Origin: a virus
Lineage: Duplodnaviria; Caudoviricetes
IMG/VR virus record: IMGVR_UViG_3300025018_000009
Location: 1 to 60,226 of that record
Length of the DNA stretch: 60,226 nt
Direction: 5' to 3' (one strand)
The notes beneath the pieces were generated by a model that had not been told where the DNA came from, made no database searches, and worked only from the letters and a program-made list of their open reading frames with translations. Position 1 is the first letter of the stretch; the number at the start of each line of letters is the position of its first letter. A program made the position numbers and the translations under genes. Shown here in pieces: positions 4,444 to 60,226 of the stretch.

Positions 4444-5598
4444 ATGTCTAACACACTCGGCAACTACAACCCGTTGTTCTATGCGAACGAAGCGTTGATT
4501 CAACTCGAAAAGGCGCTCGGCATGGCCGGTCGCATTCACCGGGGCTATGAAGAAGAGCGCAAGTCGTTCAATCGAGGCGAAACGATCAACATTCGCAAGC
4601 CCTCGACCTTCACCGCTCAGGACGCACCTTCGACGGCGCAAGACCTTGACACCGGAACGACCGCCCTCACGCTGTCGTACTGGAAAGAAGTCAAGTTCAA
4701 GCTCACGGATAAGGAACTCGCGTTCACCGGCCAGAAGATCATTGATGACCACATTCGCCCCGCTGCGTATGCACTCGCCGATGATGTTGACGGTCGCCTC
4801 GCTTCGTTGTACAAGGACATCCCTTGGTATCACACCACGAATGCTACTCCCGGCAGCGATATCGCGGATGTGACCGGCGCTCGACGCGTGTTGTTTGACA
4901 ACAACGTGCCGATGGGCGATGACAACTTGCACTTCATGGTCAACGGCCTGATGGAGCAAGGTCTGATCGGGAACAGCGCCTTCGCTCAATGGCAGGGTGC
5001 AGGACAGGAAGGTGTCAACACCCAGATGCGCGGCACGATGGGTCGTCGCTACGGGTTCGAGTTCTTCGCGAACCAGAATGTGCAGTCGCACACGAAGGGC
5101 ACGATGACCGAGTTGACCCTGTTGACGAACGGTGCAATGTCGAAGGGCGCAACCTCCGGTTCGTTCGACGATACCACCGTGACCGGTACCGTCGTCGCAG
5201 GTGACACTTTCGTCATCGCGGGCAACACCCAGCGATACGCAGTCACCGCGACTTCGACCGCTGCGGCAAACGCTCACGCGTCGATCTCGTTCACGCCTGC
5301 ACTCGTCGCGGATGTTGCCGACGGCGTGGTCGCTACTTTCGTCATGCAATCGACCGATGCCGAGAACCTCGCATTCCACCGGAACGCGTTCGCTCTCGCG
5401 GTCGCCCCGCTGCCCGACATGGCATCGGAACTCGGCGCGAAGGTTGTCACTGTGACCGATCCGATCACTGGTCTTTCGATCCGTGCTCGCATCTACTACG
5501 AAGGCAACTCGTCCGAGGTGCATGTTGCACTCGACATCCTGTACGGGCTGAAAACGCTCGACCCGAACCTCGCGGTTCGCGTGCAGGACAACGCATAA
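4444..5598 (+). CDS. Major capsid protein (P22 coat protein-like)
   Basis: GETINIRKP, IRPAAYALADD, NLAFHRNAFAL, DILYG motifs. Confidence 0.85.
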   Translation: MSNTLGNYNPLFYANEALIQLEKALGMAGRIHRGYEEERKSFNRGETINIRKPSTFTAQDAPSTAQDLDTGTTALTLSYWKEVKFKLTDKELAFTGQKIIDDHIRPAAYALADDVDGRLASLYKDIPWYHTTNATPGSDIADVTGARRVLFDNNVPMGDDNLHFMVNGLMEQGLIGNSAFAQWQGAGQEGVNTQMRGTMGRRYGFEFFANQNVQSHTKGTMTELTLLTNGAMSKGATSGSFDDTTVTGTVVAGDTFVIAGNTQRYAVTATSTAAANAHASISFTPALVADVADGVVATFVMQSTDAENLAFHRNAFALAVAPLPDMASELGAKVVTVTDPITGLSIRARIYYEGNSSEVHVALDILYGLKTLDPNLAVRVQDNA

Positions 5599-30181: not shown

Positions 30182-30466
30182 ACGACCCAATCCCGCAGAT
30201 CGATTGGGACAACGACCCACGAATCGAAGATCGACACGAAATCCCTTGCAAATCATTGCCGCCTCTTGTGTACTTTCGCGCCGTTGTCGGCGACAAAGAC
30301 AACGCAGCGCAATCGGTGCATCGATTGTTGTGCGTGTTTCAAGATCGCGTCAAAGTCGTCGAAACGGTTTGGATGACCGAAACAAAAGACCCCAACGAAA
30401 ATACGGGGCTTGATTCGGCTATTTTCAAACTGCATCAAGCATGGAAAAGGTTTCAAGAAAATCGAT

Positions 30467-30503
30467 TGTCTTGATTGACAAGTCAAGTAGCGTTGAATAT
30501 CAT
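30467..30503 (+). promoter_or_regulatory. Promoter TTGACA-N17-TATCAT with overlapping palindromic element
   Basis: Direct sequence match. Confidence 0.7.
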
Positions 30504-30526
30504 TCACGCAGCAATCGGAGGAACCA

Positions 30527-32104: not shown

Positions 32105-32702
32105 ATGGCTGCCCCACTGAAAACACCACACAACGCACCCCTGCGTGTGAAAATCACGCAGGAGTGGATTGACAAAGCGATCCTGTACGCTGCACGCTTT
32201 GCGCGTGTCAGCAAGCACGACGATCGAGTGTACGATATCGCAATGGAAGCGCTGATTCGATGTTCACAAACCTACAACGAAGATTGGGGGGATTTCATTC
32301 AAAACCCATTTGATTCGCAAAGTGAATCGATTGAGTATCGCCAGCATCGAGAAAAAGAACCGCGACGCGAACAATCGGCAACAGGTGTTGGTGCTTCGTC
32401 AAGCGAATCGAAACAGTCGCAAGATGAACGAGGCGATGATCGGTTGTGAATCACGCGACGAGTACGACATTTTGAAACGGGAAGTCGGTCACAAAGAAAA
32501 ACAAATCATCGAATTATCGATGCGAGGTTGGAAACGAAAAGCAATAGCGGAGGAACTCGGCATGAGCATCGAAGGCGTGAGGGTATACGAAAAACGAATC
32601 GTCAAACGACGGTACGATTGTCACAAAACACCCTGCGATGATCGATCGTTGATCGAGATGCACAAAACAAGAAACAAAACAGCCCGGAAAACATACGCAT
32701 GA
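32105..32702 (+). pseudogene. Sigma70/ECF-like factor split by a one-base frameshift in a G6 run
   Basis: Region-2-like N-part and region-4 HTH (KAIAEELGMSIEGVR) join if one G is removed at 32286-32291. Confidence 0.65.
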
Positions 32703-34606
32703 TTCAATCCGCGATCGATCAATTGGCCCCCGTTCGAGTTGTTCGGTCGTTGGCAGAGTTGCCCGACCCGAAATCAATCGGCCAACTATTCGCGGACGCT
32801 GAAACCATTTCAAACGACAAGAAACGAGGCGGCAACAAACCGTACCTCGGCGATCGTGCCGTCGGTTGGGGCTTGTGTTTCGACGATAATCCGATGGGGT
32901 TCTATGTCCCGTTGCGGCACAAGCCCGTTGCGAACAATCTGTTTGCGGGCGACAACATCAACATCGATATCGATCAGTTCCGGGGGTGGATGAACGCGGC
33001 GATGAAAGCGTGCGATCAGTGGGTGAATCACAATGTAAAGTTCGATGCGCATTTCTGCGAGGTTGACGGCATCGAATCCGCGAATCGAATGATCGACACG
33101 CTCACGCTCGCGAAGGTCGTCGATGGTCAGCGACGAGATCAGGAATACGGCCTGAAATCGATCACGAAACATTGGCTCGGCGAAAACACCGGCGCACGCG
33201 ACGCGGTTGACGACGAGTTGAAGCGAATGAAAACGAAGGATTTCGGGCAAGTCGATACGGGCATCCTCGGCCTGTACGCGGTTGACGATGTTCATCGCAA
33301 TCGCAGGTTGTGGGCAGAGATTCAGCGCCGGCGCTACGAGGGCGACGAAAAGATTTGGGAAATCGAAATCGGTTGCACGCGAGCGCTATTCAACATGGAA
33401 CGCCGACCGATGTATGTTGATCGGGAAATCCTCGGCGATTATCGCACACGCTATTCGATGGAAATCGATCAATGCGAAGATGAAATCATCAAGTTGGGAT
33501 ATTCAACGGATGTTCTCAAAGGCAAGGCGTTGAAAGATTTCGTGTTCAAACATTTGAAACTCCCGATCGTCGCGTACACCGATCGCGGGCAACCGTCAAT
33601 CAACGGCGACGCGATCGAAGTCTATTTGTGCCATGAAAAGGTGATTCACGACGCGAAGTTGGTGAAGTTTTTTCAAGTCCTCGCGGTGCATCGCGAGCGA
33701 AGCCAGTTCATTTCGTTGTACGCGAACGGGTGGGAAAAGTGGATGGACAGCGAAGGGCGTTTGCATCCGTTCTACAATCAGACCGTCGCGACGGGTCGAA
33801 TGAGTTGCAAGCAACCGAACTTCCAACAACTCGACAGCGACGCGAAAATGTGCATCAAACCGCCGCCGGGCAAAGCGTTCATGTCCCGCGATTATTCGCA
33901 GATCGAATATCGTGTCATCGCTTCAATGTGTCGCGACGAACGAATGATCGCGGCGTATCGCGACAACCCCGACACAGATTTTCACCAGTTCGTCGCCGAC
34001 CTTTGCGGCATCGAACGCAAGCCCGCGAAGTCGGTCAACTTCGGCATCGCGTTCTCGATGGGCCTCGGCGGGTTGATTCGTCAGTTGCGTGCGTCGCTCG
34101 GCAATGTCACCGAAGAACAAGCACAGGAAGTTCTCGACGGGTACAACGAACGATTCCCGCGAGTGCAGCGAGTATCAAAGGCGATCGTTCAAGTCGCACG
34201 CAATCGAGCGATGAACAAAGACGGCGAATGGGGGTTCATCAAAACCTTGTACGGTCGTCGTCGATACTTGCAGTTCCGCAAGTTCCGAAAGACAAAGAGC
34301 GAGCGCAAGAAATTTCCCGATCATACTCGGCTTGCGTTCAACTCGTCGGTGCAGGGCACCGCTGCCGACATTATGAAAGAGGCGTTGGTGAAAATGGATC
34401 AAAACGAGTTCCTTGCTGCGAACGATGTTCATTCCGCCGGTGTGATTCACGACGATTTCGTCGGTGTAGGAGACAACGAAGCGACGCAAGACCCACAAGT
34501 CATTGCAGAATATGAACGCGTCATGTGTACGCCGTCGGTCGATCTCGGGTTGCCGTTGATCGCAGCGGGCGGGCAATCGAACAAAAACTTGAAAGAGGCA
34601 GGATGA
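32699..34606 (+). CDS. polA: Family A DNA polymerase with 3'-5' exonuclease
   Basis: DAET, HNVKFD, YAVDD exonuclease motifs; TGRMS, DYSQIE, RKPAKSVNFG, IHDD polymerase motifs. Confidence 0.93.
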   Translation: MIQSAIDQLAPVRVVRSLAELPDPKSIGQLFADAETISNDKKRGGNKPYLGDRAVGWGLCFDDNPMGFYVPLRHKPVANNLFAGDNINIDIDQFRGWMNAAMKACDQWVNHNVKFDAHFCEVDGIESANRMIDTLTLAKVVDGQRRDQEYGLKSITKHWLGENTGARDAVDDELKRMKTKDFGQVDTGILGLYAVDDVHRNRRLWAEIQRRRYEGDEKIWEIEIGCTRALFNMERRPMYVDREILGDYRTRYSMEIDQCEDEIIKLGYSTDVLKGKALKDFVFKHLKLPIVAYTDRGQPSINGDAIEVYLCHEKVIHDAKLVKFFQVLAVHRERSQFISLYANGWEKWMDSEGRLHPFYNQTVATGRMSCKQPNFQQLDSDAKMCIKPPPGKAFMSRDYSQIEYRVIASMCRDERMIAAYRDNPDTDFHQFVADLCGIERKPAKSVNFGIAFSMGLGGLIRQLRASLGNVTEEQAQEVLDGYNERFPRVQRVSKAIVQVARNRAMNKDGEWGFIKTLYGRRRYLQFRKFRKTKSERKKFPDHTRLAFNSSVQGTAADIMKEALVKMDQNEFLAANDVHSAGVIHDDFVGVGDNEATQDPQVIAEYERVMCTPSVDLGLPLIAAGGQSNKNLKEAG

Positions 34607-36587: not shown

Positions 36588-36750
36588 TGATTGATCCTTT
36601 CGTTTCGAGTTCGCGACGGGACACCCCCGAGGCGTGCGAACTTGATCGACAGGTCAATATGACGGGTTGAGCGCCGAACAAAATTTCATTGAAAATCGTT
36701 CAGGATTTGCAGGAATCGACGAAAATGAAAAAGGTGTCGTTTTTCTTGAT

Positions 36751-36787
36751 TGACTTGATTGACAAGTCAAGTTGATCGATGTACTAT
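36751..36787 (+). promoter_or_regulatory. Promoter TTGACA-N17-TACTAT with perfect TGACTTG-N5-CAAGTCA palindrome
   Basis: Direct sequence match. Confidence 0.75.
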
Positions 36788-36823
36788 TCATCAACACAAC
36801 GATTCAATCACAAGGAGAATCAA

Positions 36824-37294: not shown

Positions 37295-38458
37295 TCCCCT
37301 CCACTACGAGTCCCCTTCGTCGAAAGGCGAGCGGGGATCATTTCACAAGTCAGTTCATCAAGGAGACAACAATGTCGAGACACAACAAATCAAACGAGCG
37401 GCCTTGCAATACGATCATCGTCAACGGGGATCGACCCGGATCGAAGAAGTTTTCACAGATCGAAGAAGGTCAAGCGATCATCAAAACGAACCCGTCGAAT
37501 CGCGAGAATCCGTGCGTGTATTTCAAGCACAGTTCAACGCACGCGATTCATCAGCAGGGCAACGGATCAATGCAGCGATTCGACCCCGATTCGTATGTGA
37601 TCCCTGTTCGGGTCGTCGAAACACATATCAAAGTCCCTCGCACATATTGAGATCAACCATGCACACGCACCCGGAACAAACACGCGACGAGATTTTCGTC
37701 GGGAACACCGACAGCCCCGCGATGCCTTCGCATTTGCGATGCTTGACGAAATCGCGATTGGGTCGGATCGCGTACACGCTCGACGGCAAACAGGCAGTTT
37801 TGGGTATGCGCCCGGTGTTGATTCACAAAGAAGATCACGCGAGGTACGATCGAATCATGTGCGGGCGATTCAGTGCAGCATGTCGCGGCACATAGGCGAT
37901 ACAATCGATTGGCGTTTCGTTTGTTCGCGGGGGCACCTCACCTCTCTTTCTGCCCCGAAAGCCGCGAGCAAAACGAAGAACGGGGAAACTCGTACCTGAT
38001 TCGGCGCTATGGAAACGCAGCGCCGAATCATTGAAAGGAACTCAGCATGTACCAAGTTCACAAAGTCCTCAATCCAGACGAAACGCATCAAGTAAAGGTC
38101 GGCGACAAGGTTGAATATCGCGCCGGGCCAGAACGACAAGCGGTGTACGATGACGCAGAAGTCATCGGCATCGAAGCGTTCGTCATCGCAGTCAACGATT
38201 TCATCGAAGTCGATGAAGTGTACGAATACACAAGCGATCAGGATATTTCATTGGTGATTTTCCATGTCAAAACACAACACGGCAATCAACACTGGGGCTA
38301 TTGGGATCAGGTGTGTGTGCCATGATCGAACACATTCTCGCGTTCCTCGATCGGCGTACGGTCGGCGAAACAATCATCATCGCCCTCGGCATCGGGCCGT
38401 GGGTCGCAATCGGGGCAAAACTGTTTGTCGCGATCATCAAAGTCATCTGAGGACAAAC

Positions 38459-39586
38459 ATGCAATTCGACAGCAAACAAGCGTTTGACGCACTCGCAGTA
38501 CCATCGTTGGAACAGGTTCACCCGGAGTTGATCGATTTCATCGATGACAAGTCGGAGCCGTTGGACACGCTCGAAAAGATTCTCGTTCAGTTGAGCGACG
38601 AAGAACTCGCGATTGCGTCAGCGGTCATCGGTTCGTTTGTGCGCTGGGGGTACGGCGACAACCCGTTGATCGAACTGCTTCGCGAAGATCGCGTCGTCGA
38701 TTCAAATACGGGAACAACGGAACCGCTCGGCGAAGCGATGGTCAAGCGCATCGACGCATACATATCGAAAGTGCTGCACCTCGACGCGAAACATCGCACG
38801 GAAGCGAAGTGGTATTTCGTTGTTTCGTCTGGCGCATTGAAGATTGTGTTCCCGCACCGACTCAGCATCAGCGGAATGAATTCGTACCCCGTTGCTTCGG
38901 CTACCGCGACCGACCTGAAAAAAGCACGCGAGATCGCCGCAAGTTCAATCATTCAAAACGGCGTTCCGACGAGTCCCGAACAGCACGAACATATGGCGAA
39001 GAAGATCGCAATCGCGTGCAGCCCGACGATCGTTGGTGGGTGGTTGAACCTCGGCCTGTACATGGTCAGCGGTTGGGAGTTGGCGCGTCGTGATTGCGTT
39101 CGCGAAACGGGTGACGAGAAAGCGATCCCCGAACACAAGCCCGTAGATGATGAATCGATCATCGATTGCTACGGGTTCATTTTTGACCTCGGCCCGTTCT
39201 ACATCGATCGAATCGCGGAAGTGAACTTCCAGTACATCGGGGCAGACCCCGAAGCGCAGAAATCCGATATGCACAAGTTCGTCGTGACAAAGCAGCACGA
39301 AGAAATCGCGTTGAAGTTGAAAACGAAGATCGAACCTCACCTCGCACCGTGCGGTGTGTGCGGCGGCGACTACAAAGATCATTCAAGCGATCGCGTGTTC
39401 GTCATCGGATTGCGCCGGGATGCGACCCCGAAGGAAGCCGAAAAACATCTCGGGCAGTTGCATCACCCAATGGCGAAAGACGGCATCGACGGGTTTGTAT
39501 TCATCGATTCGCCGCAGCATTATCGAATCAAAGAGCCGGAAGGGAGCGAGGATGAAAATACTTCGGCAAATCCCGACCCCGAGTGA
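38459..39586 (+). CDS. Hypothetical protein
   Basis: Long ORF with GAGG RBS. Confidence 0.6.
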   Translation: MQFDSKQAFDALAVPSLEQVHPELIDFIDDKSEPLDTLEKILVQLSDEELAIASAVIGSFVRWGYGDNPLIELLREDRVVDSNTGTTEPLGEAMVKRIDAYISKVLHLDAKHRTEAKWYFVVSSGALKIVFPHRLSISGMNSYPVASATATDLKKAREIAASSIIQNGVPTSPEQHEHMAKKIAIACSPTIVGGWLNLGLYMVSGWELARRDCVRETGDEKAIPEHKPVDDESIIDCYGFIFDLGPFYIDRIAEVNFQYIGADPEAQKSDMHKFVVTKQHEEIALKLKTKIEPHLAPCGVCGGDYKDHSSDRVFVIGLRRDATPKEAEKHLGQLHHPMAKDGIDGFVFIDSPQHYRIKEPEGSEDENTSANPDPE

Positions 39587-41045
39587 TTCGGGCGAACCGC
39601 AATGCGAGTTCAAGTGCGGTTGGTGCAGCGCGACGACTGTTCTTCCCGGCGACGCGATCGACGAGTTTTTCAAAACCGAGATCGTCCCGCAAATGGAATG
39701 TCAGTCGTGTCATCGCGTAGGTGAACCGGAATCAAACAACAGGACAAGCGGCACAATCACCGGGCGCATGGCATCGGGCGGTCGCGTGTCACCGAACATT
39801 CAGTCGTTCCCACACATTCCGGGTCAACGACGCATGAACATGATCGGCACCCCGCAAGGCCGCAATCATTACGAGGAACTGCATCGAGAACTAAACATCG
39901 GACAGTATCGGCGCGAGATCGAAGGTACATGGGTCGGCGACGACGAATCGTTGTTCGTGTTCCCGCAGATTGTTCGCACGCATCGATTGGAAGGCGCGGA
40001 GTTGATCGCGTACGAAGCGGATCGCCCAATCGGGAGATTCGTCGCGTTCGGTATTCTCGAGCGATCGGGCGGTCGAGGCAGCGGACAACCCGATCAGGTT
40101 CTGCACACAACCGATTCGTTCGTAGCGTCCGACGCATTGAGGAATAGGCAGGAAGTCGCCGCAATCATCGAAGGGGACAACGGGGCTTTCTACGCACCGA
40201 TTCATCAAATGGATGTTTCGATAACGAGGGGAAGCCCGAACACATACCCCGAGGTGAAATACGAAATAATTGTTCGATCGATGTCGCGTCTAATGACTAC
40301 GCAAATCGAAGTTCGAGGCCATGCAGTCATGCGACCCGATCGCATCGTGCCGTTGTCTGAAACTCCCCCGCCTGAACCTCCGAGCCATGTGAATTGTCGA
40401 TCAACACGCGTTCCGATCATGGAGCGCAGCGAAGTTCGACTTGGCGGCGAAGGTATCGAAATGACCGACAGCGGCACGATTGAAATCAACGGCGAGCAAC
40501 ATCGAATCGTCCCCGGATCATTGAGAATCGAAACGCACCCGAATCGTGCAGTCGAAACAACGGTTCAGGTCGAACGACCGATCAATAACAGCGCCCCGTA
40601 TGTTTCGTCGCTCGAAGCCGACCGAATGGCGAGGCAGGCAAGATTAGGCGCATCGTTCGGCATGGGATCGCAACGCCTCGCAGCACAGCGGAACGCAGCG
40701 CAACAAGCACGCGAAGCGTCGAAGGAAATCGCAAACGCACTCGGCGGCATGAGAGAAACAGCGACGAACGCAGCGATAGCGAGGCAAGGAGTCGAATCAT
40801 CGATGCGCGATGCAGCATCACACATAGCCGACTCAATGATCGGCAGCATCCTCGGTCGAGCGCTCGGTCAGCATGTCGATCAAATAATCGCGGACGACCT
40901 CGGCGCTCGCACAAACGATCATTCGGCAAATGCACTTCGGTATACGACCGAATCGTTTCGACCGCTCAAATCACATCCCGGATCGACATATTCACCGATT
41001 CGATTCACTGAACCGTCGGCAACAACAAGAATCAGGAAAGCATGA
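39552..41045 (+). CDS. Hypothetical protein with N-terminal Zn ribbon and isolated motifs resembling terminase, PolA and head proteins
   Basis: CGWC..CQSC; see findings. Confidence 0.65.
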   Translation: MKILRQIPTPSDSGEPQCEFKCGWCSATTVLPGDAIDEFFKTEIVPQMECQSCHRVGEPESNNRTSGTITGRMASGGRVSPNIQSFPHIPGQRRMNMIGTPQGRNHYEELHRELNIGQYRREIEGTWVGDDESLFVFPQIVRTHRLEGAELIAYEADRPIGRFVAFGILERSGGRGSGQPDQVLHTTDSFVASDALRNRQEVAAIIEGDNGAFYAPIHQMDVSITRGSPNTYPEVKYEIIVRSMSRLMTTQIEVRGHAVMRPDRIVPLSETPPPEPPSHVNCRSTRVPIMERSEVRLGGEGIEMTDSGTIEINGEQHRIVPGSLRIETHPNRAVETTVQVERPINNSAPYVSSLEADRMARQARLGASFGMGSQRLAAQRNAAQQAREASKEIANALGGMRETATNAAIARQGVESSMRDAASHIADSMIGSILGRALGQHVDQIIADDLGARTNDHSANALRYTTESFRPLKSHPGSTYSPIRFTEPSATTRIRKA

Positions 41046-41785
41046 TGACAACACAAACAATCTCGATCGGCAATGTGTCCGATCTGGTGTACCCGAAGAA
41101 GCACGAAAACGCAGACCTGACATTCTTCGACCCGCCGTACAACATCGGCATCGACTACGGCGACGATGAAATCCTCAACGACAAGCGCCCCGACGATGAA
41201 TACCTCGCGGACTTCTCGAAATGGATTCACACCGCGAAGCATATGACGCGACCCGGCGGGATCGTTGCGTGCCTTATCAGCGACGAATACGCAAGCGATG
41301 TCGATCTGTTGTTTCGTGAGCATTTCGGCAAAGAGAATCGAATCAATCGAATCGTGTGGCGGGAACGATTCGCACAGTACCGCGAAACGAAGTTCGTCAA
41401 CGAGCATCGGCATTTGTTCTTTTATCGAAAACCCGGAGGCGAAGCGTATTGGTACAACGGTGCAGAAATTCGCGTGCCAAGCGCTCGCATGATCCTCGGC
41501 GACAAACGCGCGAAAGGGCCTCGCGTCCCCGGCGATGTTTGGGAGTGCCCGCGATTGCCCGGAAACGCAAAGGCCCGCGTTGATTGGCACCCCTGCCAGT
41601 TGCACCCGGAACCGTTGAAACGAATCGTATATTCGTTCGTGCCGCCAAACGGCAAAGTCAACGAACTGTTCGCGGGTTCGGGATCGCTCGCGATCGTTTG
41701 CAAACAACTCGGATTGAACTATTGGGGCGTGGACGGCAGCCGCAAGTTCGTACGCGAAGCCCTTCAACGATTGGATGAAGCATGA
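41042..41785 (+). CDS. DNA amino-methyltransferase (N6A/N4C, beta-class motif order)
   Basis: DPPY, HPCQ, ELFAGSG. Confidence 0.9.
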   Translation: MMTTQTISIGNVSDLVYPKKHENADLTFFDPPYNIGIDYGDDEILNDKRPDDEYLADFSKWIHTAKHMTRPGGIVACLISDEYASDVDLLFREHFGKENRINRIVWRERFAQYRETKFVNEHRHLFFYRKPGGEAYWYNGAEIRVPSARMILGDKRAKGPRVPGDVWECPRLPGNAKARVDWHPCQLHPEPLKRIVYSFVPPNGKVNELFAGSGSLAIVCKQLGLNYWGVDGSRKFVREALQRLDEA

Positions 41786-42162
41786 GCAAGATAAAACCGC
41801 ATGACCCGACGAAAGATATCGCCGGCGCTGGCCCGTTCGATGTCGTCAAAGTGTACGAGATCGCATCCGGCAGCGGCACGATGACGACACCGATCCCGTT
41901 GTATCGAGGGCACAAACAGCAAATCGACGCGTTCGCAAACGACAAGGTGATGCCGGATCGATTCGTGTACGCGGTGTTGTGCATGAGTCTCGGTTCGGTC
42001 GTTTCGTCAGTCACGACAAAGCGGGAATGGGATGGATTGCTCGGCGCAATCAGGTACGCGATCGAAAATGTCCCTGATTCAAAGTGGGGCACAAACGACA
42101 AAGTTCATCGATGGATCAGGGACGGGGCTTGACCGACCCGAAATACATGATAGGATATTGAC

Positions 42163-42552
42163 ATGGCAGACAAGTCAGCACTAAACAGAGTCAAGATGCC
42201 CGATCAGCGCGCCGGCGATACCCGGAAAGTGCAAGTCGGAGGTTGGGAACTCTATATCATCGTGAACTATTTCGACAATGACCAACCGGGCGAGGTGTTC
42301 GTCACAGTTGGCAAAAACGGAACGACGGTCAGCGGGTTGATGCAGACGATTGCTACGCAGTTCAGTATGTTGTTGCAAGCGGGTGTTCCGTGCGCACGAA
42401 TCTGCGAAAACATGAAGCACCACAAGTTCGAGCCGCGCGATGAGTCGTTTGATTCGCTCGTCGATGCGCTCCAATCTACGGTGCTGCAATCTTGCAGCGA
42501 TCGAGGATCACAAACTGACCTCGACCACTCAACGAAAGAGGTAAAGTGGTGA
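42163..42552 (+). CDS. Stand-alone TSCPD-like domain (class II ribonucleotide reductase C-terminal module)
   Basis: LYIIVN...PGEVFVTVGKNG...SMLLQAGVP....FEP....SLVD. Confidence 0.7.
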   Translation: MADKSALNRVKMPDQRAGDTRKVQVGGWELYIIVNYFDNDQPGEVFVTVGKNGTTVSGLMQTIATQFSMLLQAGVPCARICENMKHHKFEPRDESFDSLVDALQSTVLQSCSDRGSQTDLDHSTKEVKW

Positions 42553-42827
42553 CGACAGCAACCAGAAAAAATAAAAAGCAAATCAAGTTCGCGGTGAAAA
42601 CCGTCGAAACGATTTACGAAATCGACGGCGACAAGTTTCGTCGCGCAATCGAATCGGCGGGTTTGAAACAAGCCGATATCGCCGAAGCGTGCGGGCACAA
42701 AGACGCGACCCGCGTTTGTCATATCGCTCGCAAGGGCAAACAACGAATCAGCGGCGAAAAACTCGCGTGCATGATCGCATGTATGCGTGAAGCCGGAATC
42801 GTCGTGGAGGGATTCGACGATGAGTGA
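42546..42827 (+). CDS. XRE-like helix-turn-helix protein
   Basis: AGLKQADIAEACG pattern. Confidence 0.55.
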   Translation: MVTTATRKNKKQIKFAVKTVETIYEIDGDKFRRAIESAGLKQADIAEACGHKDATRVCHIARKGKQRISGEKLACMIACMREAGIVVEGFDDE

Positions 42828-43422
42828 TTCAACTCCAAACCTCGATCATATTTGCGATGACCTGAAACCGCTCGCGATCCCGATGGACGCGATCGATTTG
42901 ATGGACGGCAACCCTCGCGATCACGATGACAAGTCGATCGAAGCAATCGCGGCGAGTTTGAAGATTTTCAAACAGACAAAGCCGATCGTTCTCAGCGCCG
43001 ACGGGCGAGTCATCATCGCAGGCAACGGCACATATCAAGCCGCGAAGTTGCTCGGGTGGACACACATCGCAGCGAACAAATCGCACCTCGAAGGCGAAGA
43101 AGCCCTTGCGTACGCAATCGCAGACAATCGCACAGCCGAACTATCGCAGTTCGACTACGACATTGTGGGCGCTGCAATGAAGGGCATGAGTGATTCGATG
43201 CAATCGAACCTCGGGTTCAGCGATGACGAGATCAAATCGATTCTCGAAGGGAACGGCCTCGACGGGGGCGCAAACGAAACAGAACTCAAAGGCGAAGAAC
43301 CTGACGCAATGGGCGATGTCGAATATCGCGTGCTCGTCATGCTCGACAACGCGGACGACCAATCCGAGTTGATCGCACGCCTTGAAGATGAGGGGTACAC
43401 ATGCCAACCATTGATGTCGTAG
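42820..43422 (+). CDS. ParB/Srx-like N-terminal domain protein
   Basis: NPRDH..IAASL..F.QTKPI..IIAGNG..AA..LG..IADNRTAE. Confidence 0.85.
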   Translation: MSDSTPNLDHICDDLKPLAIPMDAIDLMDGNPRDHDDKSIEAIAASLKIFKQTKPIVLSADGRVIIAGNGTYQAAKLLGWTHIAANKSHLEGEEALAYAIADNRTAELSQFDYDIVGAAMKGMSDSMQSNLGFSDDEIKSILEGNGLDGGANETELKGEEPDAMGDVEYRVLVMLDNADDQSELIARLEDEGYTCQPLMS

Positions 43423-44507
43423 TTGAATCCGGGATCGATCTTTCAGTCCGTGCGCGTCAAGTGTGCGGGATGTTCGATTGCCCGCCCGAAGAAAAGCAAG
43501 TGCTGAAATGGCAAGCCGAACTCCCGATCGAGGATGATCCTTGGTCGATCGGTTTGATTGTCGGGCCTTCGGGTTGCGGCAAAACCACCGTCGCGAATCA
43601 CCTTTGGCGTGACGAAATGGAACGCAAGCCCGATTGGGACAAACCAACGGTGATTGATTGTTTCAGTTCAGGAGTCGAAGCAACAGCGCAAGCATTGAAC
43701 GCGGTCGGGTTCTCGACTGTGCCTGCGTGGTTGCGACCGTATCAGGTGTTGAGCAACGGCGAGAAGTTTCGCGCCGATATGGCACGACGAATCGTTGAGC
43801 AAGACGGGTTGATCGTCGTCGATGAATTCACATCGGTAGTCGATCGACAGGTTGCAAAGATCGCATCGCACGCGATTCAGAAATACATTCGCAGACAGAA
43901 CAAACAAATGGTCGCGGTGTCGTGCCATGACGACATTATCGATTGGCTACAACCGGATTGGATTTTCCGGCCAGACGAACGAGTGTTCGAGCGGAGGTCG
44001 GTTCGATCCCGGCCAACGGTCGAAATCGAAGTGGCGAGAATCCCCTACGACGCGTGGCAATTATTCGCACCGTATCACTATCTGACTGCTGAACTCAACA
44101 AAGCGGCTCGATGCTTTGGTTTGTGGGTCAACGGGAACCTTGCCGCGTTCGGCGGGGTGCTGCATCGACCGCACCCGAAAACGAAGAACATCAAGGGCCT
44201 GAGTCGGCTTGTGACGCTGCCGGATTATCAAGGGCTTGGCCTCGGGTTCGTGTTGAGTGAAACGCTCGGCGAAGCGTACACGGCCCTCGGGTTCAGGTAT
44301 CGCAACTACCCGGCGCATCCGGGGTTCGTGCGTTCGTATCGCAAAGAGAAATGGTTGATGGTCAAACGCGCCGGGAAGATCGATCAAAAACCATCGACGC
44401 AGAACATCAAGAATTTCGCGAAGTTGCGACCGTGTGCGGTGATGGAATATATCGGCCCGAAAATGGACGCGGACGCAGCGAAGAAACTGATTGAAGGTGT
44501 CAAATGA
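43401..44507 (+). CDS. ABC-type ATPase fused to GNAT-like acetyltransferase
   Basis: GPSGCGKT, LSNGE, VVDEF, SCH; C-terminal HYL and SRLVTLPDYQGLGLG. Confidence 0.85.
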   Translation: MPTIDVVVESGIDLSVRARQVCGMFDCPPEEKQVLKWQAELPIEDDPWSIGLIVGPSGCGKTTVANHLWRDEMERKPDWDKPTVIDCFSSGVEATAQALNAVGFSTVPAWLRPYQVLSNGEKFRADMARRIVEQDGLIVVDEFTSVVDRQVAKIASHAIQKYIRRQNKQMVAVSCHDDIIDWLQPDWIFRPDERVFERRSVRSRPTVEIEVARIPYDAWQLFAPYHYLTAELNKAARCFGLWVNGNLAAFGGVLHRPHPKTKNIKGLSRLVTLPDYQGLGLGFVLSETLGEAYTALGFRYRNYPAHPGFVRSYRKEKWLMVKRAGKIDQKPSTQNIKNFAKLRPCAVMEYIGPKMDADAAKKLIEGVK

Positions 44508-45283
44508 ATCTGAATCACATTGTCGAGGATTTGCACGCGCTTGCGGTTCGTGTCGATTCGTTGCAGTTCATGGACAACAACCCTCGCGTGCATGACGACC
44601 GTTCGTTCGATGCGATTTGTCGAAGCGTGAAAAAGTTCAAGCAAACGAAGCCGATCGTACTCGCGAACGATGGGCGTACGGTGTTGGCGGGGAACGGTAC
44701 GCTTGAGGTGGCGCGTCGCATGGGGTGGGAGTTCATCGCAGCATCGAAATCGGAACTCAGCGCGGGCAGCGCCGAAGCAATGGCGTACGCGATCGCGGAC
44801 AATCGCACGACTGACCTTTCGTATTTCGATCAAACGATCATCGACGACGCGATGAGGGCATTCGACGACACGCTCAGGGACGCGTCAGGGTTCATCGACA
44901 GCATCTTCGAGGTCGAGGGCGGGAACGAGGGTCAAACGCAGCACGGGGCGTCTGAGGGCGTTTCAGCGAACAACAGCGATAGCGTGTCAGAAACGCGGGC
45001 GCAAGGCATCACACAAGAGGCCGACCTCCCTGAAATTGTGCGTAGCGCCGAAACAAGCGAGGTTGGTCACTCGGTAAGCGACGAATCGGGTTCAAGCGCC
45101 GAAACAACAGCACCGGCGGTACGCGTTGCGTCGATTCGATACGATCTGGTTTTCGAGGACGATTCGGATCAGCAAGAGTTTTTCGAGTTCACCCGCTGGC
45201 TTCGCGCCAAGTACCCCGACATTTCAACGGTGGGAGGGCGCATCGTTGAATGGTTGAGAACGGAGGCCCCGGCATGGGGATGA
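44504..45283 (+). CDS. Second ParB/Srx-like domain protein
   Basis: NPRVH..FKQTKPIVL..VLAGNG..YAIADNRT; paralog of 42820-43422. Confidence 0.85.
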   Translation: MNLNHIVEDLHALAVRVDSLQFMDNNPRVHDDRSFDAICRSVKKFKQTKPIVLANDGRTVLAGNGTLEVARRMGWEFIAASKSELSAGSAEAMAYAIADNRTTDLSYFDQTIIDDAMRAFDDTLRDASGFIDSIFEVEGGNEGQTQHGASEGVSANNSDSVSETRAQGITQEADLPEIVRSAETSEVGHSVSDESGSSAETTAPAVRVASIRYDLVFEDDSDQQEFFEFTRWLRAKYPDISTVGGRIVEWLRTEAPAWG

Positions 45284-45645
45284 CACCCGAACAACGCAAA
45301 CAGGCAAACGCGATGCTCGCCGTCCTGGGTCGTCGCGACAAACTCGAATCAGATATCAAACTTTGGATCGAACAACACCCGCAAGATTGGGTCGAGCGAT
45401 TGAACGAAATCCTTCGCACGCATGACGACGAAAAAACTCAACTCGATCAAATGATCGTCAACTCGTTCGTGCTGTTCGGCGCAATGACGATCATCAACGG
45501 GTTTCGCGAGGAAATCGTCGAAGGATGGCGCGAAGGACGCGACCCGACGCGACCTACAGGCGACGGGAACGAAATTTCTGATTGGTGAATCGTGCGGGAT
45601 TCACAGCAATCGATGATTCTACAAAAATGTGCGATATTCCGAACA

Positions 45646-45682
45646 TGACTTGATTGACAAGTCAAGTTTGTCGATGTACCAT
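45646..45682 (+). promoter_or_regulatory. Promoter TTGACA-N17-TACCAT with perfect palindrome
   Basis: Direct sequence match. Confidence 0.75.
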
Positions 45683-45740
45683 GTATCAACGGGTGAACAA
45701 GGCACCCGCGACACAAGGCGACAAACACAAGGAACAAATC

Positions 45741-54470: not shown

Positions 54471-55196
54471 ATGGATCAGCCCGAAACGCCCAACCCGAAC
54501 CACGACCCCGAGCGCCAAGCCGAAGAAGCGCGCCGACTCGCGGCGAATGATCCCGAGTTCGCGGACACCGACGCGACTGAACACGACCCGTACGCGCACC
54601 TTCGCCCTCACCAGTTCAAACCGGGACAATCAGGCAACCCGGCGGGTCGTCCTCCGGGGATTCGTTCGCTCGCGAAGCGGATGCGCCAAGCCGGTACATT
54701 GCGCCCTGCTGACATTGATGCGTTCAAGGCCCTCGCAAGCAAACTCGGCATCGACGAACCGACATTGAAGGGGATGGACATCATCGATCTGTTGTCGGTG
54801 TCTACTTTCCTGCACGCGATCAGCGGCAAATCGGCAGCGCTCGCCCAAGTCACGCGAACGCTCACCGGGTCGGTGCTGTACACCCCGAACGACTCGAAGG
54901 ATAAAAAGCCCGACGATTATCGAAACGACGCGATTCAGTTCTACGAAGCGGTGATTGCATCGCCCGACATCGACATCAAGGACAAGATCATCGCACGCGG
55001 GAAACTCGACGCGATTCAAGGGTTGCTCAACGACACCTCGACGATGGGCGCTGAACAAATGGCCGACGAGATTCGCGACTTCCTTGAAATGGCCGAATCA
55101 AGCGTACCCAAATCGCCGAACGATGACGAAGAACAAACTTCGCCGCCTCTTTCGGTACAGGACAACGAATCGCCAACGCAGGTTGATACGCTATGA
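54471..55196 (+). CDS. terS: Terminase small subunit (DUF5681-like motif)
   Basis: FKPGQSGNPAGRP; directly upstream of large subunit. Confidence 0.7.
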   Translation: MDQPETPNPNHDPERQAEEARRLAANDPEFADTDATEHDPYAHLRPHQFKPGQSGNPAGRPPGIRSLAKRMRQAGTLRPADIDAFKALASKLGIDEPTLKGMDIIDLLSVSTFLHAISGKSAALAQVTRTLTGSVLYTPNDSKDKKPDDYRNDAIQFYEAVIASPDIDIKDKIIARGKLDAIQGLLNDTSTMGAEQMADEIRDFLEMAESSVPKSPNDDEEQTSPPLSVQDNESPTQVDTL

Positions 55197-56533
55197 GCAA
55201 ACTTGCACGCTGGTACGATCTTGAATATCACAAACAACAGTCGGGGTACTTTGAATCGAGAACCCGATTCAATGTCACCTACGCGGGCCGTCGATCAGGC
55301 AAGACCGAAATCGCGAAGCGCCGACTTATCAAGCGAGCGCTCGCGTTTCGTGCGTTCCCTGACGGGTATTTTTTCTTTGCAGCGCCAACACTCGGGCAAT
55401 GTCGCGATATCTATTGGAACGATCTCAAACGCATGGTGCCGCCGAACCTGATACGCGGCAAGCCGTACGAAACCGACCTCACGATTCGATTGAAAACCGG
55501 GACAGAGATTCGTTGCATCGGCCTCGATGTGCCCGAACGCGCCGAAGGTCGCCCCGTTGATGGTTGCGTGCTTGACGAGTACGCGAACATGAAACCGATC
55601 GTATGGACGCATCACCTTCGCCCGGCGGTTGACACAAAGAATCGGTTGGGCTGGGTGGATTTCATCGGGGTGCCCGAAGGTCGCAATCACTACTACGATT
55701 TGGTGAAGGACGCAGAAGCAGACGCAACAGGTCAATGGCGAAACTGGCATTGGAAGTCGAGCGACATCCTCGACCCGATGGTCATCGAGGCAGCACGCAA
55801 AGACCTCGACGAGTTGGTGTTCGCACAGGAATACGAGGGTTCGTTCGTGTCGTTCCTCGGGCGTGCGTACTACGGGTTCGAGACTCAGTATTCGACCTAT
55901 CGCGGGCTGCCGTACGATGAGAATCGACCGTTGATTCTTTGCTTTGACTTCAACACCGCGCCGGGCGTGTGCGTGATTTGCCAAGAGCAATATATCCTCC
56001 CGCCGAACATGCCGGGGTTGATTGCACCGTTCACCGCCGTCATCGGCGAGGTGTACATCCCGCAAAACTCAAACACTGAACTCGTAGCGCAGCGCGTGCT
56101 GAACGATTGGAAAGATCACAAAGGCGAGGTTCGTTTGTACGGGGACGCGACCGGCGCGATCAAGAAAACGCAATCGTTGAGCGGGTCAGATTGGGATATC
56201 GTCGAACGAACGCTTTATCCTGTGTTCGGGTCGCGGATGCTGCCGATGTACGGGATGAGCAACCCACGCGAGCGTGCGCGTGTGAACGCGATGAACACAC
56301 GCTGTCGATCAGGCATCAACGGGCAATACGCTCGTCGATTGATCGTTGACCCGACGAAGGCCCCGAACACGGTCAAAGATTTCGAGGGCGTTCGGATGGT
56401 CGAAGGCGGTTCAGGCGAAATCGACAAGAAACACGACAAAAAGTTGACTCACCTCACTGATGCGCTCGGGTACTACATCACCGAGGAATTCCCGGTTCAA
56501 GGCCCCGGACACACGCAAATGGTCGCCATTTGA
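55193..56533 (+). CDS. terL: Terminase large subunit
   Basis: AGRRSGKT, VLDE, G.PEG.NHYY, QEY.GSF, FDFN, HLTDALGY. Confidence 0.92.
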   Translation: MSKLARWYDLEYHKQQSGYFESRTRFNVTYAGRRSGKTEIAKRRLIKRALAFRAFPDGYFFFAAPTLGQCRDIYWNDLKRMVPPNLIRGKPYETDLTIRLKTGTEIRCIGLDVPERAEGRPVDGCVLDEYANMKPIVWTHHLRPAVDTKNRLGWVDFIGVPEGRNHYYDLVKDAEADATGQWRNWHWKSSDILDPMVIEAARKDLDELVFAQEYEGSFVSFLGRAYYGFETQYSTYRGLPYDENRPLILCFDFNTAPGVCVICQEQYILPPNMPGLIAPFTAVIGEVYIPQNSNTELVAQRVLNDWKDHKGEVRLYGDATGAIKKTQSLSGSDWDIVERTLYPVFGSRMLPMYGMSNPRERARVNAMNTRCRSGINGQYARRLIVDPTKAPNTVKDFEGVRMVEGGSGEIDKKHDKKLTHLTDALGYYITEEFPVQGPGHTQMVAI

Positions 56534-56608
56534 CCTTGTGGTCAAGTTTTGGTATCATTATGCCGACGAGGGATGTACCTCGATTCACCCAAACACGGAG
56601 ATTCAGAC

Positions 56609-56800
56609 ATGGCAAACAACAACGCAAAGGGCAGCACGAAAGCGAAGATCACCGCGATTCTTCTGTTGATCGGCGCTGCTGTCACCGCTGCCGCATTCTA
56701 CCTTGACGGCGACGACACTACGCAACCCGATATTGGTGCAGTCGTTGACAGCGCGCAGGATGTGAAAGATCAATTCGGGGACGACGCGATCGAACCTTGA
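56609..56800 (+). CDS. Small single-TM protein (holin candidate)
   Basis: ITAILLLIGAAVTAAAFYL; GGAG RBS. Confidence 0.4.
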   Translation: MANNNAKGSTKAKITAILLLIGAAVTAAAFYLDGDDTTQPDIGAVVDSAQDVKDQFGDDAIEP

Positions 56801-57991: not shown

Positions 57992-60217
57992 ATGACCCGT
58001 ACCCTTATGCTTGCCCTGCTCGCAACTGCTTCGATTCTGGCGCTCCCTGCGTGCGAATCGACACAGGACAGCGCCAACACCTCGACGATCGGCATCCCGC
58101 CCCTGAACGACGCTGATGAATCGATGCGTATCGCGATGCTGCTCGACGAAAGCGCCGAAACTGTGCCGGGTGAATCCGTCGCTGCATTCGTTTCGGGGGC
58201 AAGCGCCGAAACTGCGAATACTGCGAATCTGCAACCGCTTCGCAAGGCGACCGACAAAATCCCGACCTCGAAGAAATCGAAGGGCAAGCAACCCGACCCG
58301 AAGCCCCTCGGGAAACCTGACCCCGCGAAAACCAAACCGAAGATCGAACCCGTCATTGATGACCCGATGCCGCGACCGTTCCCGGATGACCCGCTTATCG
58401 ATCCGATTCGCGCCCGATGGTATCATTCGGTTTCGCGCGAACCGATGTGGCTTATCACCGCAGGCAACGGCACGCGAAGCGCTGACGACCCGAACGGACT
58501 CGCGTCATGGTGGCACGACGACAACCCCGACGCGGTGCAGAACTTCCTTGAACAAGTGCGAAACGGGTACGCTCGCGGCGCTCGCAGTTTTTTCGTGAAT
58601 CGACCGATGGGCACGAACGGTCGAACGCATGTACCTGCGTCGTCATGGCTCACGATCCCCGCAGGCAAACGCTCAGCGCTTGTCGATGCGTTGATTGATT
58701 TGAACCTGTCAACGGACGAGGAATTTCGTTTCTACTGGTTCATCGGTTCAGACCTCAAAGACCCGCGATCAATAGAAGGTTGGAGCAGTTCGACACCTGA
58801 CGCAGACACTTTCCTGCTCGGTGAAACCGACACATGGGAACACCTCATTGCGTCGCGAAACATCATCGGCGGGTGGATGTCCACTGGCGCTGCTGGGCTT
58901 TTCATTGACCATTCTTCGCCCGCAGACGAACGCGAACACTTCAAATTCATGTCTCGGCAACTGCTGCAATCGCCGTTCGAGATGATCGTCGGCGGCGAGG
59001 CATTCCCGTACGCATTCGACGACAACGGCAGCACGATCCGCGACCCCAACAACAACTCACCGCTGCTCGACATGGAAGCGGTCGAATATATGTCATGGGT
59101 CGGCACCTATTCGTACATTCAGCATTCGTCCCGTTGGCCGACAGGCACGACGAACGCGACATGGCCCCCGAACCCAGAGAACACCCGCATGTTCTGTTGG
59201 TTCAACGGCACGAAAGACCTCGGCACCGACGCGGACAAACGCGGCATCATTGAACAAACGATTCGCGACGGGTTGATCCCGATCACAGGCGACGCGGGCA
59301 TGTTCACGCACGCGATGGAAATCTATCGGTTGATGAACGAGGATCAGACGAAGGCCCCGACATCGGATCGCAAGATTTATATTTGTATGCCGGGTGAGGA
59401 AGAATGGAACCGCGACTATTTGCAGCGCATCGGCGATGCCGGGTTCCCGCTCGATCGAACTGATTACATGCTGCAAATCGGCTCGCGAATCAGCAACTTG
59501 TTCCCTGACGAGGACATCCTCGGATCATTGAACGGACAAACGATTCACGAATATGTCAAGGACACCGCACAGATTCGACTCGATCGATCGTGGGCACCCG
59601 AACCGTTCAGTGCGTGGTTCTACGACTACGAACCGCGACACCGGGACGACGACGGCAATGTCATTTCGAGTTGGCTTTGGCCCCGCGCCAAAGTCGGCGG
59701 TACGGGTTTCAGCAAACGCGACACGCAGTTCTTGAAAGAGGCGTACGCTGCGTGTCAAGAAGTCATGGGCGACCTGCCCGGATCAGTGTACGGCATCCCT
59801 CGCACGCTCGGCGCTCGATCACCCGAAGCCGAATCGATCAAACACATGATGGCGTTTCGTGACAACACGAACGCGTACGGGTACGCTCAGTTGAACTTGT
59901 ACCCACCGAACGGGACGGCTGACAAGCGCGAAATCAATGACGACAACCGGCAAGATCACATCGATCGAATCGTCGGGGGAAATCAGGCAATGAAACAACT
60001 CGTCGTTGACGGGGTGCCGATCTGGGCGATGATGTGGCCGCGATGGTTGACCGACAATGAAATGTGGTTCGATTTGTACCTCGACACATTGGAGCAAACC
60101 GACATCGAAACGCTCATTATTTGGGTAAACCCTCACAACGCAACCATGTCGCGTGTGTACGCCGACGAAACGATCGAGGGAATCCCCGCGATCTTGGACT
60201 GGTTGAACGGTGGTTGA
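57992..60217 (+). CDS. Large predicted lipoprotein of unknown function
   Basis: MTRTLMLALLATASILALPA-C lipobox, Pro/Lys linker, Trp/Asp-rich globular region. Confidence 0.6.
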   Translation: MTRTLMLALLATASILALPACESTQDSANTSTIGIPPLNDADESMRIAMLLDESAETVPGESVAAFVSGASAETANTANLQPLRKATDKIPTSKKSKGKQPDPKPLGKPDPAKTKPKIEPVIDDPMPRPFPDDPLIDPIRARWYHSVSREPMWLITAGNGTRSADDPNGLASWWHDDNPDAVQNFLEQVRNGYARGARSFFVNRPMGTNGRTHVPASSWLTIPAGKRSALVDALIDLNLSTDEEFRFYWFIGSDLKDPRSIEGWSSSTPDADTFLLGETDTWEHLIASRNIIGGWMSTGAAGLFIDHSSPADEREHFKFMSRQLLQSPFEMIVGGEAFPYAFDDNGSTIRDPNNNSPLLDMEAVEYMSWVGTYSYIQHSSRWPTGTTNATWPPNPENTRMFCWFNGTKDLGTDADKRGIIEQTIRDGLIPITGDAGMFTHAMEIYRLMNEDQTKAPTSDRKIYICMPGEEEWNRDYLQRIGDAGFPLDRTDYMLQIGSRISNLFPDEDILGSLNGQTIHEYVKDTAQIRLDRSWAPEPFSAWFYDYEPRHRDDDGNVISSWLWPRAKVGGTGFSKRDTQFLKEAYAACQEVMGDLPGSVYGIPRTLGARSPEAESIKHMMAFRDNTNAYGYAQLNLYPPNGTADKREINDDNRQDHIDRIVGGNQAMKQLVVDGVPIWAMMWPRWLTDNEMWFDLYLDTLEQTDIETLIIWVNPHNATMSRVYADETIEGIPAILDWLNGG

Positions 60218-60226
60218 TTCGCTATA
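60100..60226. repeat. Terminal direct repeat of 1-127
   Basis: Exact match. Confidence 0.95.

Follow-up and report, generated by a model that had tools for sequence, protein, structure and literature searches.

We wanted to understand what kind of protein is encoded by an open reading frame (ORF) of the phage record IMGVR_UViG_3300025018_000009, whose product, P0001, looks in short stretches like several unrelated core proteins of tailed phages. The window analysed here spans this whole record (60,226 bases), which is complete and bounded by direct terminal repeats (1-127 = 60100-60226). A sequence-only reading of this window had described P0001 as a collage of signature peptides of terminase, DNA polymerase and head proteins, possibly serving as a decoy. 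We observed that two of these peptides, one of the large terminase (TerL) and one of the MuF head-morphogenesis protein, are matched well above chance and stand apart from the domains to which they belong. Tentatively, P0001 may be a patchwork accessory protein.

Terminase, MuF and polymerase motifs in P0001

The stretches in question and the resident genes used as references are as follows.

39552-41045, + strand: ORF of the 497-aa orphan protein P0001, stop codon included
39747-39815, + strand: patch 1 resembling family A DNA polymerase (PolA), TGRMAS and PNIQSFP (aa 66-88), with a 3-residue insertion relative to PolA
39834-39890, + strand: TerL-like patch with the core IGTPQGRNHY (aa 95-113), matching TerL aa 155-173
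39888-39983, + strand: weak, unsupported TerL-like stretch, REIEGTWV region (aa 113-144; phrog_2, E 0.24)
40371-40421, + strand: MuF-like patch PEPPSHVNCRSTRVPIM (aa 274-290), C-terminal signature of the MuF domain
40629-40688, + strand: stretch resembling PolA motif B (aa 360-379), overlapping a sub-threshold LPD22 match (aa 352-404)
2348-3418, + strand: resident MuF head-morphogenesis gene (PF04233, E 1.5e-15), reference for the MuF patch
32699-34606, + strand: resident family A DNA polymerase gene (PF00476, E 4.2e-53), reference for the PolA patches
55193-56533, + strand: resident large terminase gene (phrog_2, E 1.4e-27), reference for the TerL patch

The coordinates and identity counts given by the sequence-only reading were exact on recheck. 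Comparisons within the window were made on 74 ORF products (+ strand, at least 60 aa, greedily chosen, two corrected by hand). Profiles of TerL and MuF were built from 120 of 3610 and 120 of 770 homologues, respectively, and the profile of PolA from the window protein and 10 phage sequences picked from 40 rows of 258 records. The scores were compared with those of shuffled sequences, including block shuffles, which retain local composition.

In ungapped comparison of P0001 with the other 73 window proteins the MuF motif scored 66 and the terminase motif 58, over a background of approximately 42. When P0001 was shuffled 1000 times, the best match reached 66 in 2 shuffles and the second-best reached 58 in none. 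All 74 proteins were also compared with one another. A pair of ParB paralogues gave the top score, and with this pair set aside the top two compact matches both involved P0001. One diffuse ungapped alignment of 44 residues, between the major capsid protein (4444-5598; aa 202-245) and an 83-aa ORF that follows the terminase gene (56549-56800), scored 62. P0001 was the top non-member of the window set for three full-length and four motif hidden Markov models (HMMs). With a control HMM of an ATPase-GNAT protein it ranked 38 of 49 reported, and with a control HMM of the capsid protein two other non-members reached 7.0 and 5.1 bits.

The head-protein match proposed earlier was confirmed. PPSHVNCRSTRVPI of P0001 is identical to PPAHHNCRSTTTPV of resident MuF at 9 of 14 residues, and the signature PPxHxNCR[SC] is present as PPSHVNCRST at aa 276-285. 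The MuF motif HMM gave 21.8 bits (0/2000 shuffles) and the full MuF HMM 15.0 bits (0/2000 shuffles, 0/2000 block shuffles; next non-member 2.3 bits), with a single-comparison HMMER E-value of 6e-7. Using hhalign, we aligned the patch over 17 columns (probability 85%, E 6.2e-6). Eight MuF-type PHROGs match it.

The terminase assignment of IGTPQGRNHY, which shares 8 of 10 residues with IGVPEGRNHY of resident TerL, stood as well. The motif HMM gave 16.5 bits (0/2000 shuffles) and the full TerL HMM 9.1 bits (1/2000 shuffles, 0/2000 block shuffles; next non-member 0.3 bits; single-comparison HMMER E-value 2.5e-5); hhalign covered 26 columns (probability 58%, E 9.7e-5). We take this IGxPxGRNHY stretch to follow Walker B in the terminase ATPase domain, in the region of the coupling, or C, motif. 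No Walker A/B core was detected in P0001, as the upstream flank compared with TerL columns 85-154 scored at chance (1028/2000 shuffles) and Pfam scans of P0001 gave no ATPase family; PF03237 found only the resident terminase gene in the genome. The exact variant IGTPQGRNHY was present in 0 records of the JGI metagenome collection. Of the 15 phage records matched by an 81-aa TerL-like fragment, all had E >= 0.2 and none matched in a large terminase; a 61-aa MuF-like fragment matched no phage record. Resident TerL is matched by 812 phage records in tblastn.

The two PolA motifs are suggestive. The TGR..PNxQ motif HMM gave 6.2 bits (2/2000 shuffles) and the motif B HMM 6.7 bits (0/2000 shuffles); non-members in a control family reach similar scores. 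The full PolA HMM gave 5.8 bits (0/2000 shuffles, 1/2000 block shuffles; next non-member 0.6) and aligned only aa 64-106 and 360-394; we read this score as no more than suggestive because of the 7.0 and 5.1 bits reached by non-members with the capsid control. In hhalign patch 1 covered 18 columns (E 0.0036, probability 9%) and motif B 20 columns (probability 0.7%), and PF00476 had no match on P0001 at E<=10. The two stretches are collinear and resemble TGRxS..PNxQxxP and motif B of family A DNA polymerases (PF00476). P0001 differs from these enzymes in its marginal scores, the 3-residue insertion that splits the first motif, the lack of a match to catalytic motifs A and C, and the separation of TGRxS from motif B (approximately 290 residues, compared with approximately 80 in PolA). 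Resident PolA is itself unusual here (33782-34090, aa 362-462): PNFQQLD takes the place of the PNLQ[NQ][IV]P-like sequences found in the other ten phage polymerases, and its motif B contains AFSMG, whereas most others carry Tyr before Gly.

Three other claims were not supported. The HMM of the TerL QEYEG motif found no match in P0001, and the score of P0002, the sole relative of P0001, was reached by 150/2000 shuffles. The supposed terminase nuclease motif scored -1.3 bits with an HMM of TerL 408-436 (253/2000 shuffles). With the capsid HMM, P0001 ranked 17 of 46 reported (-1.6 bits). Against shuffled and within-genome controls the seven proposed motifs were therefore divided into two clear, two suggestive and three unsupported.

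The matches are confined to motif cores of approximately 15-26 residues (hhalign 17-26 columns). When the flanks alone were compared with the adjoining family columns, 142, 1028, 1319 and 617 of 2000 shuffles reached the score, which is chance in all four cases, and Pfam profiles PF00476, PF04233 and PF03237 did not match the ORF even at E<=10. The peptides indeed occur without the surrounding domains, as had been stated. Judged by domain-level features of its sequence, P0001 falls outside the TerL, MuF and PolA families. With terminases (Terminase_6 type, phrog_2) it shares the IGxPxGRNHY stretch of the clade, but neither a Walker A or B region nor a nuclease domain was found. Similarly, it has the C-terminal PPxHxNCRS of MuF / SPP1 gp7 proteins (PF04233, phrog_241), but the rest of the domain of approximately 110 residues is absent or unrecognisable. 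We regard the patches, their statistics and their isolation as established.

A reader who compares many proteins with many motifs may select an orphan that resembles several of them by chance. The PolA scores (5.8-6.7 bits) lie in the range of control-family non-members, three of seven claims failed and curated Pfam profiles gave nothing, all of which fits such an accident. We nevertheless find it highly improbable as an account of P0001. The single-comparison E-values of MuF and TerL, the two compact top matches of the window that both involve P0001, the absence of two matches this strong in 1000 shuffles, and block shuffles that never reached the observed MuF or TerL score (0/2000 each) speak against it. 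For the MuF and TerL patches chance is disfavoured.

The MuF match is the strongest of all, and P0001 might be a degenerate MuF-anchored effector of polyvalent type. The region before aa 290 would be a diverged MuF, the C-terminal part would be LPD22-like, and the TerL and PolA motifs would be coincidental. In agreement with this, a few BLASTP alignments to MuF homologues extend 60-107 residues upstream of the motif (28-33% identity), and just downstream LPD22 (PF18834) matches aa 352-404 below its cut-off of 28.6 (14.0 bits with all of P0001, 18.0 bits with a segment of 61 aa). The part of Iyer et al. 2017 (PMC5512222) used here describes MuF as a hub domain fused to effectors, and homologues of resident MuF carry ADP-ribosyltransferase domains, while some show weak sub-threshold peptidase-like matches. 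Still, we consider this explanation quite unlikely. The MuF flank upstream of the patch is at chance (617/2000 shuffles), and PF04233 matched neither the whole of P0001 nor its segments at E<=10 and found only the resident gene in the genome. LPD22 is below cut-off and had no match in P0002 at E<=0.1. Moreover, the TerL patch is significant independently, and the gene lies outside the head module.

The distribution of the MuF motif also bears on this. We searched IMG/VR with the pattern PP[x]HVNCR[x]T and obtained 32 contigs, in 27 of which the 10-mer is identical to that of P0001. The full MuF domain (44-218 bits) was present in 30 of 32 frames, and the remaining two are short frames of 17 and 31 residues. 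The PPSHVNCRST-type motif is widespread and elsewhere lies inside its domain in every frame long enough; the complete domain in all 30 untruncated frames is a further point against a MuF-anchored effector.

Many of the PPSHVNCRST frames (IMG/VR loci L060-L087) have 740-1150 residues with the MuF domain at the extreme C-terminus, and are probably portal-MuF fusion proteins. Several homologues of resident MuF (among P0140, P0174, P0224, P0235, P0159 and P0209) have C-terminal ADP-ribosyltransferase domains or weak, sub-threshold metallopeptidase-like matches. Resident MuF (356 aa) has no ADP-ribosyltransferase or peptidase-like domain. These homologues fit the known role of MuF as an anchor for injected effectors.

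Conservation of the gene and of its patches

The following features of P0001 and its gene were used.

39541-39546, + strand: AGGGAG resembling a Shine-Dalgarno sequence, 5 nt upstream of the ATG at 39552, read from sequence
39603-39713, + strand: Zn-ribbon-like Cys cluster (aa 18-54; C18, C22, C25, C50, C53; phrog_14808)
40608-40910, + strand: predicted long C-terminal helix (aa 353-453; AF2, low confidence)

P0001 has one relative, P0002, among approximately 15 billion proteins (89% identity over 480 aa, gapless). The same sole match was obtained in a search of 5.8 billion clusters and in a filter-free HMMER search of 1.84 billion representatives. Pfam, PDB, PADLOC and NCBIfam gave no family above noise, and no relatives were found in the phage collection (tblastn), IMG/VR or JGI metagenomes. 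Contigs of the relative phage, from two runs of different studies, extend over 38025-42200. They differ from the window by 284 substitutions and by six indels of one base each, which form three compensating pairs. The good ribosome-binding site, the gapless 89% relative and the compensating indels together argue that the gene is real. MuF of the P0002 phage is also 89% identical to resident MuF; at the protein level P0001 therefore evolves no faster than a structural gene. The ORF is an intact, maintained gene of very narrow distribution, and its conservation we regard as established.

A more distant relative, a 53,991-base contig, shows 80% likeness, with the methylase alone aligning. Protein searches gave no homologue of P0001 from it, though its TerL (73%) and MuF (68%) turned up. 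Synteny queries with the upstream ORF, the methylase, the portal and PolA gave no related viral contigs. In the contig of the P0002 phage the 32 bases 39595-39626 are repeated on the opposite strand approximately 26 kb away; no inverted copy of them was found in the window at the repeat-search settings used.

The N-terminal Zn ribbon noted earlier was confirmed by phrog_14808, a small phage Zn-ribbon family, which matches aa 17-55 (E 4.4e-5), and its cysteines are invariant in P0002. Structure prediction gave little more. AF2 with a two-sequence alignment reached a mean pLDDT of 33.1 and a pTM of 0.18, and only aa 353-453 had pLDDT 50-64. The ESM Atlas model (pLDDT 0.43) had structural neighbours at TM <= 0.22 and no usable feature match.

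We compared the patches with the resident genes at the DNA level. They are identical at 27/51 and 33/57 nt (53%, 58%), and residues that are identical share their codons in 3/10 and 4/9 cases. This agrees with the earlier view that the DNA is diverged from the phage's own genes and is no recent duplication. In blastn against 50,697 phage records the P0001 gene gave 31 records, all at E >= 2. By likeness to the patches, resident TerL ranks 36/120 and resident MuF 55/120 among the profile sequences, and PNIQSFP of P0001 is more like PNLQNIP, the canonical form in other phages, than like resident PNFQQLD. As far as these alignments go, the patches match the consensus of the clade and not the resident proteins.

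Matched patch residues that are invariant in the donor family (at least 80% conserved) differ between P0001 and P0002 in 0 of 24 positions, compared with 9 of 46 other patch positions (one-sided Fisher p = 0.017). The invariant motif residues thus seem to matter to P0001.

Two further ideas were set aside. One is a recoded template for repairing essential genes that have been cut; the longest identical DNA run seen is approximately 8 nt. The other, a collapsed copy of the genome, would account for the order PolA-TerL-MuF, in which the patches follow one another as the genes do in the genome, but not for the second PolA patch, which is out of this order.

The patches might also be relics of a mobile element, a former intein or homing endonuclease that moved among terminase, MuF and polymerase genes, carried flanking pieces along and decayed. 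Inteins occur in actinophage genes for the terminase large subunit, a minor capsid protein (SPP1 gp7 family) and DNA polymerase, and jump between genes, according to the portion of 10.1101/2025.01.02.630785 consulted; such elements occupy conserved motifs, as described in part of PMC2814812. However, Hint, LAGLIDADG, HNH, GIY-YIG and other endonuclease families were unmatched at E<=10 in the whole of P0001 and in six segments. Intein or endonuclease families of Pfam or PHROGs were also missing at E<=10 in 19 sliding windows, where HMMER filters may hide very weak matches. The motifs are uninterrupted, not split at a junction, and the patch order is not nested. We therefore judge a relic of this kind very unlikely.

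Surroundings of the gene

The head of the probable operon that includes the P0001 gene is marked by the following feature.

36759-36787, + strand: promoter-like TTGACA-17-TACTAT in a repeated element, probable operon head; the next copy is at 45654-45682

All long ORFs of the window are on the + strand. The gene set is that of a tailed phage and includes an SPP1-type portal, MuF, a P22-type coat protein, family A DNA polymerase, ThyX and the large terminase. The top identity of resident terminase among the phage records is 52.5%; the closest named record is MW202621.1 (TerL 52.5%), whose 588-aa 'Zn-ribbon protein' is unrelated to P0001.

P0001 is flanked by an orphan ORF on one side and an N6/N4 DNA methylase on the other, with PolA and ThyX upstream. 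Two copies of the repeated promoter-like element (36759, 45654) bracket the stretch that holds its gene. To judge from this arrangement, the gene sits in a non-structural, replication-module operon and would be expressed early or in the middle of infection. One RNA data set compared with this stretch gave no contig on it, a result that is neutral as to expression. The portal and resident MuF genes are adjacent at 838-3418, and the P0001 gene is outside this head module. It differs in this respect from MuF genes, which adjoin the portal, and the phage already has a complete MuF gene.

The repeated element, with the core CTTGATTGACAAGTCAAGT, is present at 30444-30511, 36728-36795 and 45623-45690, and also at 9209, 22493 and 54374. 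Sigma-70-like promoter hexamers are found within the repeats at 36759 and 45654. The repeats probably are the phage's own promoter family and split its genome into transcription units.

The upstream orphan ORF (38264-39586) matched no family in Pfam, PHROGs, PADLOC or NCBIfam. Its true start is likely later, near the Met at 38459. Compared with the relative phage, the 4 differences upstream of 38400 occur at codon positions 2, 3, 2 and 2, and from 38507 on third positions hold 22 of 26 differences, which indicates strong purifying selection.

Downstream lies a gene (43401-44507) whose product combines a P-loop ATPase with a GNAT acetyltransferase; the ATPase has weak PADLOC matches to mad3 and mad8. 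On either side of it is a ParB-like gene (42787-43422 and 44504-45283), and the two ParB-like proteins are paralogues (ungapped score 269 over 95 aa). The pair of ParB and ATPase-GNAT genes recurs in most of 18 IMG/VR loci that otherwise share no gene here, and it looks like a mobile two-gene module. Only the ATPase-GNAT gene and its ParB-like neighbour are common to these 18 loci, which makes them uninformative for the P0001 locus. A free-standing 129-aa TSCPD-domain protein (42163-42552) matches B12-dependent ribonucleotide reductases over their C-terminal part (NCBIfam E 3.8e-26); no reductase catalytic domain was found among the scanned neighbouring ORFs.

Possible origin and role of P0001

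The explanation that we tentatively favour is that P0001 is a patchwork accessory protein in which motif-sized parts of core genes have been retained as working loops. Its scaffold would consist of the N-terminal Zn ribbon, a strand-rich middle and the long C-terminal helix. It would carry in-frame patches of 15-25 residues that have the invariant residues of the C-terminal signature of MuF, of a terminase ATPase motif and, less certainly, of two polymerase A motifs. We infer that packaging and replication genes of phages from the same clades supplied these pieces, each of the size of a motif, and that illegitimate, short-patch recombination joined them. The pieces may have persisted as loops rich in Gly, Pro, Arg, Asn, His and Cys that serve a local purpose within P0001. 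Donor enzymes have loops of this kind at nucleotide, metal or DNA-backbone sites. For this reason P0001 might act as a nucleotide- or nucleic-acid-binding factor in early or middle infection, rather than as an enzyme of a donor family or primarily as a decoy. The alternative offered earlier, a locus that accumulates fragments of conserved genes, comes close to this explanation; what we see is one selected ORF and no decaying locus.

Several points weigh against a patchwork of working loops. No donor with similar DNA was found, the 32 IMG/VR contigs giving 20-37/51 identical nt, and the proposed capture of short patches has no observed case here. The patch order fits neither a simple nested nor a collinear history of fragments, and the PolA part may be chance. 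The constraint test is modest: it compares one pair of sequences at p of only 0.017, and against the rate of the whole protein (53/481 differ) p = 0.056. Ligand binding is pure inference, and the structure models are of low confidence (pLDDT 33; 0.43). Finally, mimicry predicts purifying selection on invariant residues equally.

Mimicry is indeed the explanation closest to the decoy proposed earlier. The consensus-like core motifs would engage a factor that reads them, for example an immune sensor of the host, a protease, a modifying enzyme or an inhibitor produced by a competing phage or satellite, and P0001 would act as a decoy, competitor or dominant-negative protein. The fit of the patches to family consensus rather than to resident proteins, their isolation from their domains, the unchanged invariant residues in P0001 and P0002 and the location of the gene next to an orphan DNA methylase, within a non-structural operon, are all consistent with it. 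In addition, terminase and family A polymerase are among the known Avs triggers given in the part of PMC13581612 used. On the other hand, the same part does not list MuF as a trigger, and in it and in part of PMC13601566 Avs sensors recognise folded core domains, with the whole ATPase or polymerase domain required. A peptide of 15-25 residues in a foreign scaffold would therefore be a poor Avs decoy, because a folded core domain activates these sensors. This argument weighs on Avs-type sensors and not on other readers of short peptides. Among the 268 anti-defence proteins of the EVADES preprint, the section consulted has two anti-Avs proteins (a ligase and a nucleotide-binding one) and describes no trigger-peptide decoy. 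Besides, in structures the motifs in question are elements of catalytic cores rather than interfaces between proteins. We find mimicry unlikely. That P0001 represents a new kind of phage protein, a scaffold with bare, selected consensus copies of TerL, MuF and PolA core motifs that titrates or misdirects a motif-recognising factor, we also find unlikely.

Phages are known to have mosaic genes and polyvalent proteins of several domains, as the same portion of Iyer et al. 2017 (PMC5512222) describes. Like its polyvalent and MuF-effector fusions, P0001 combines pieces of several families, including MuF and a sub-threshold LPD22. In contrast, the polyvalent proteins described there have whole domains in series and are packaged in virions, whereas P0001 has only motif-sized pieces and a non-structural setting. 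If P0001 is a mimic, it would also imitate a conserved molecular pattern, as DNA mimics of the Ocr type do; the anti-defence mimics in the part of the EVADES preprint used imitate the shape and charge of DNA, and a mimic of trigger peptides is not described there. A narrow literature search, which does not establish absence, found no report on proteins with isolated signature motifs or on trigger-peptide decoys. Within this search, no protein had been described before that retains nothing but signature motifs, and these from at least two and perhaps three core families without relation to one another.

In summary, phage mosaicism is known for whole genes and domains, and the mosaic unit in P0001 is a single signature motif. 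The motifs belong to at least two unrelated core families, perhaps to three, and selection apparently keeps the residues that define them. Tests with motif-level profiles and with shuffled and within-genome controls can sort real from imagined matches, as they did here with two clear, two borderline and three false ones. If P0001 is not a single case, some orphan phage proteins would be built of recognisable motif-sized parts, which would provide a handle on their origin, and conserved motifs would be reusable outside their folds. Should P0001 prove to be a mimic, phages would gain a way to interfere, at the level of peptides, with the readers of their most conserved features.

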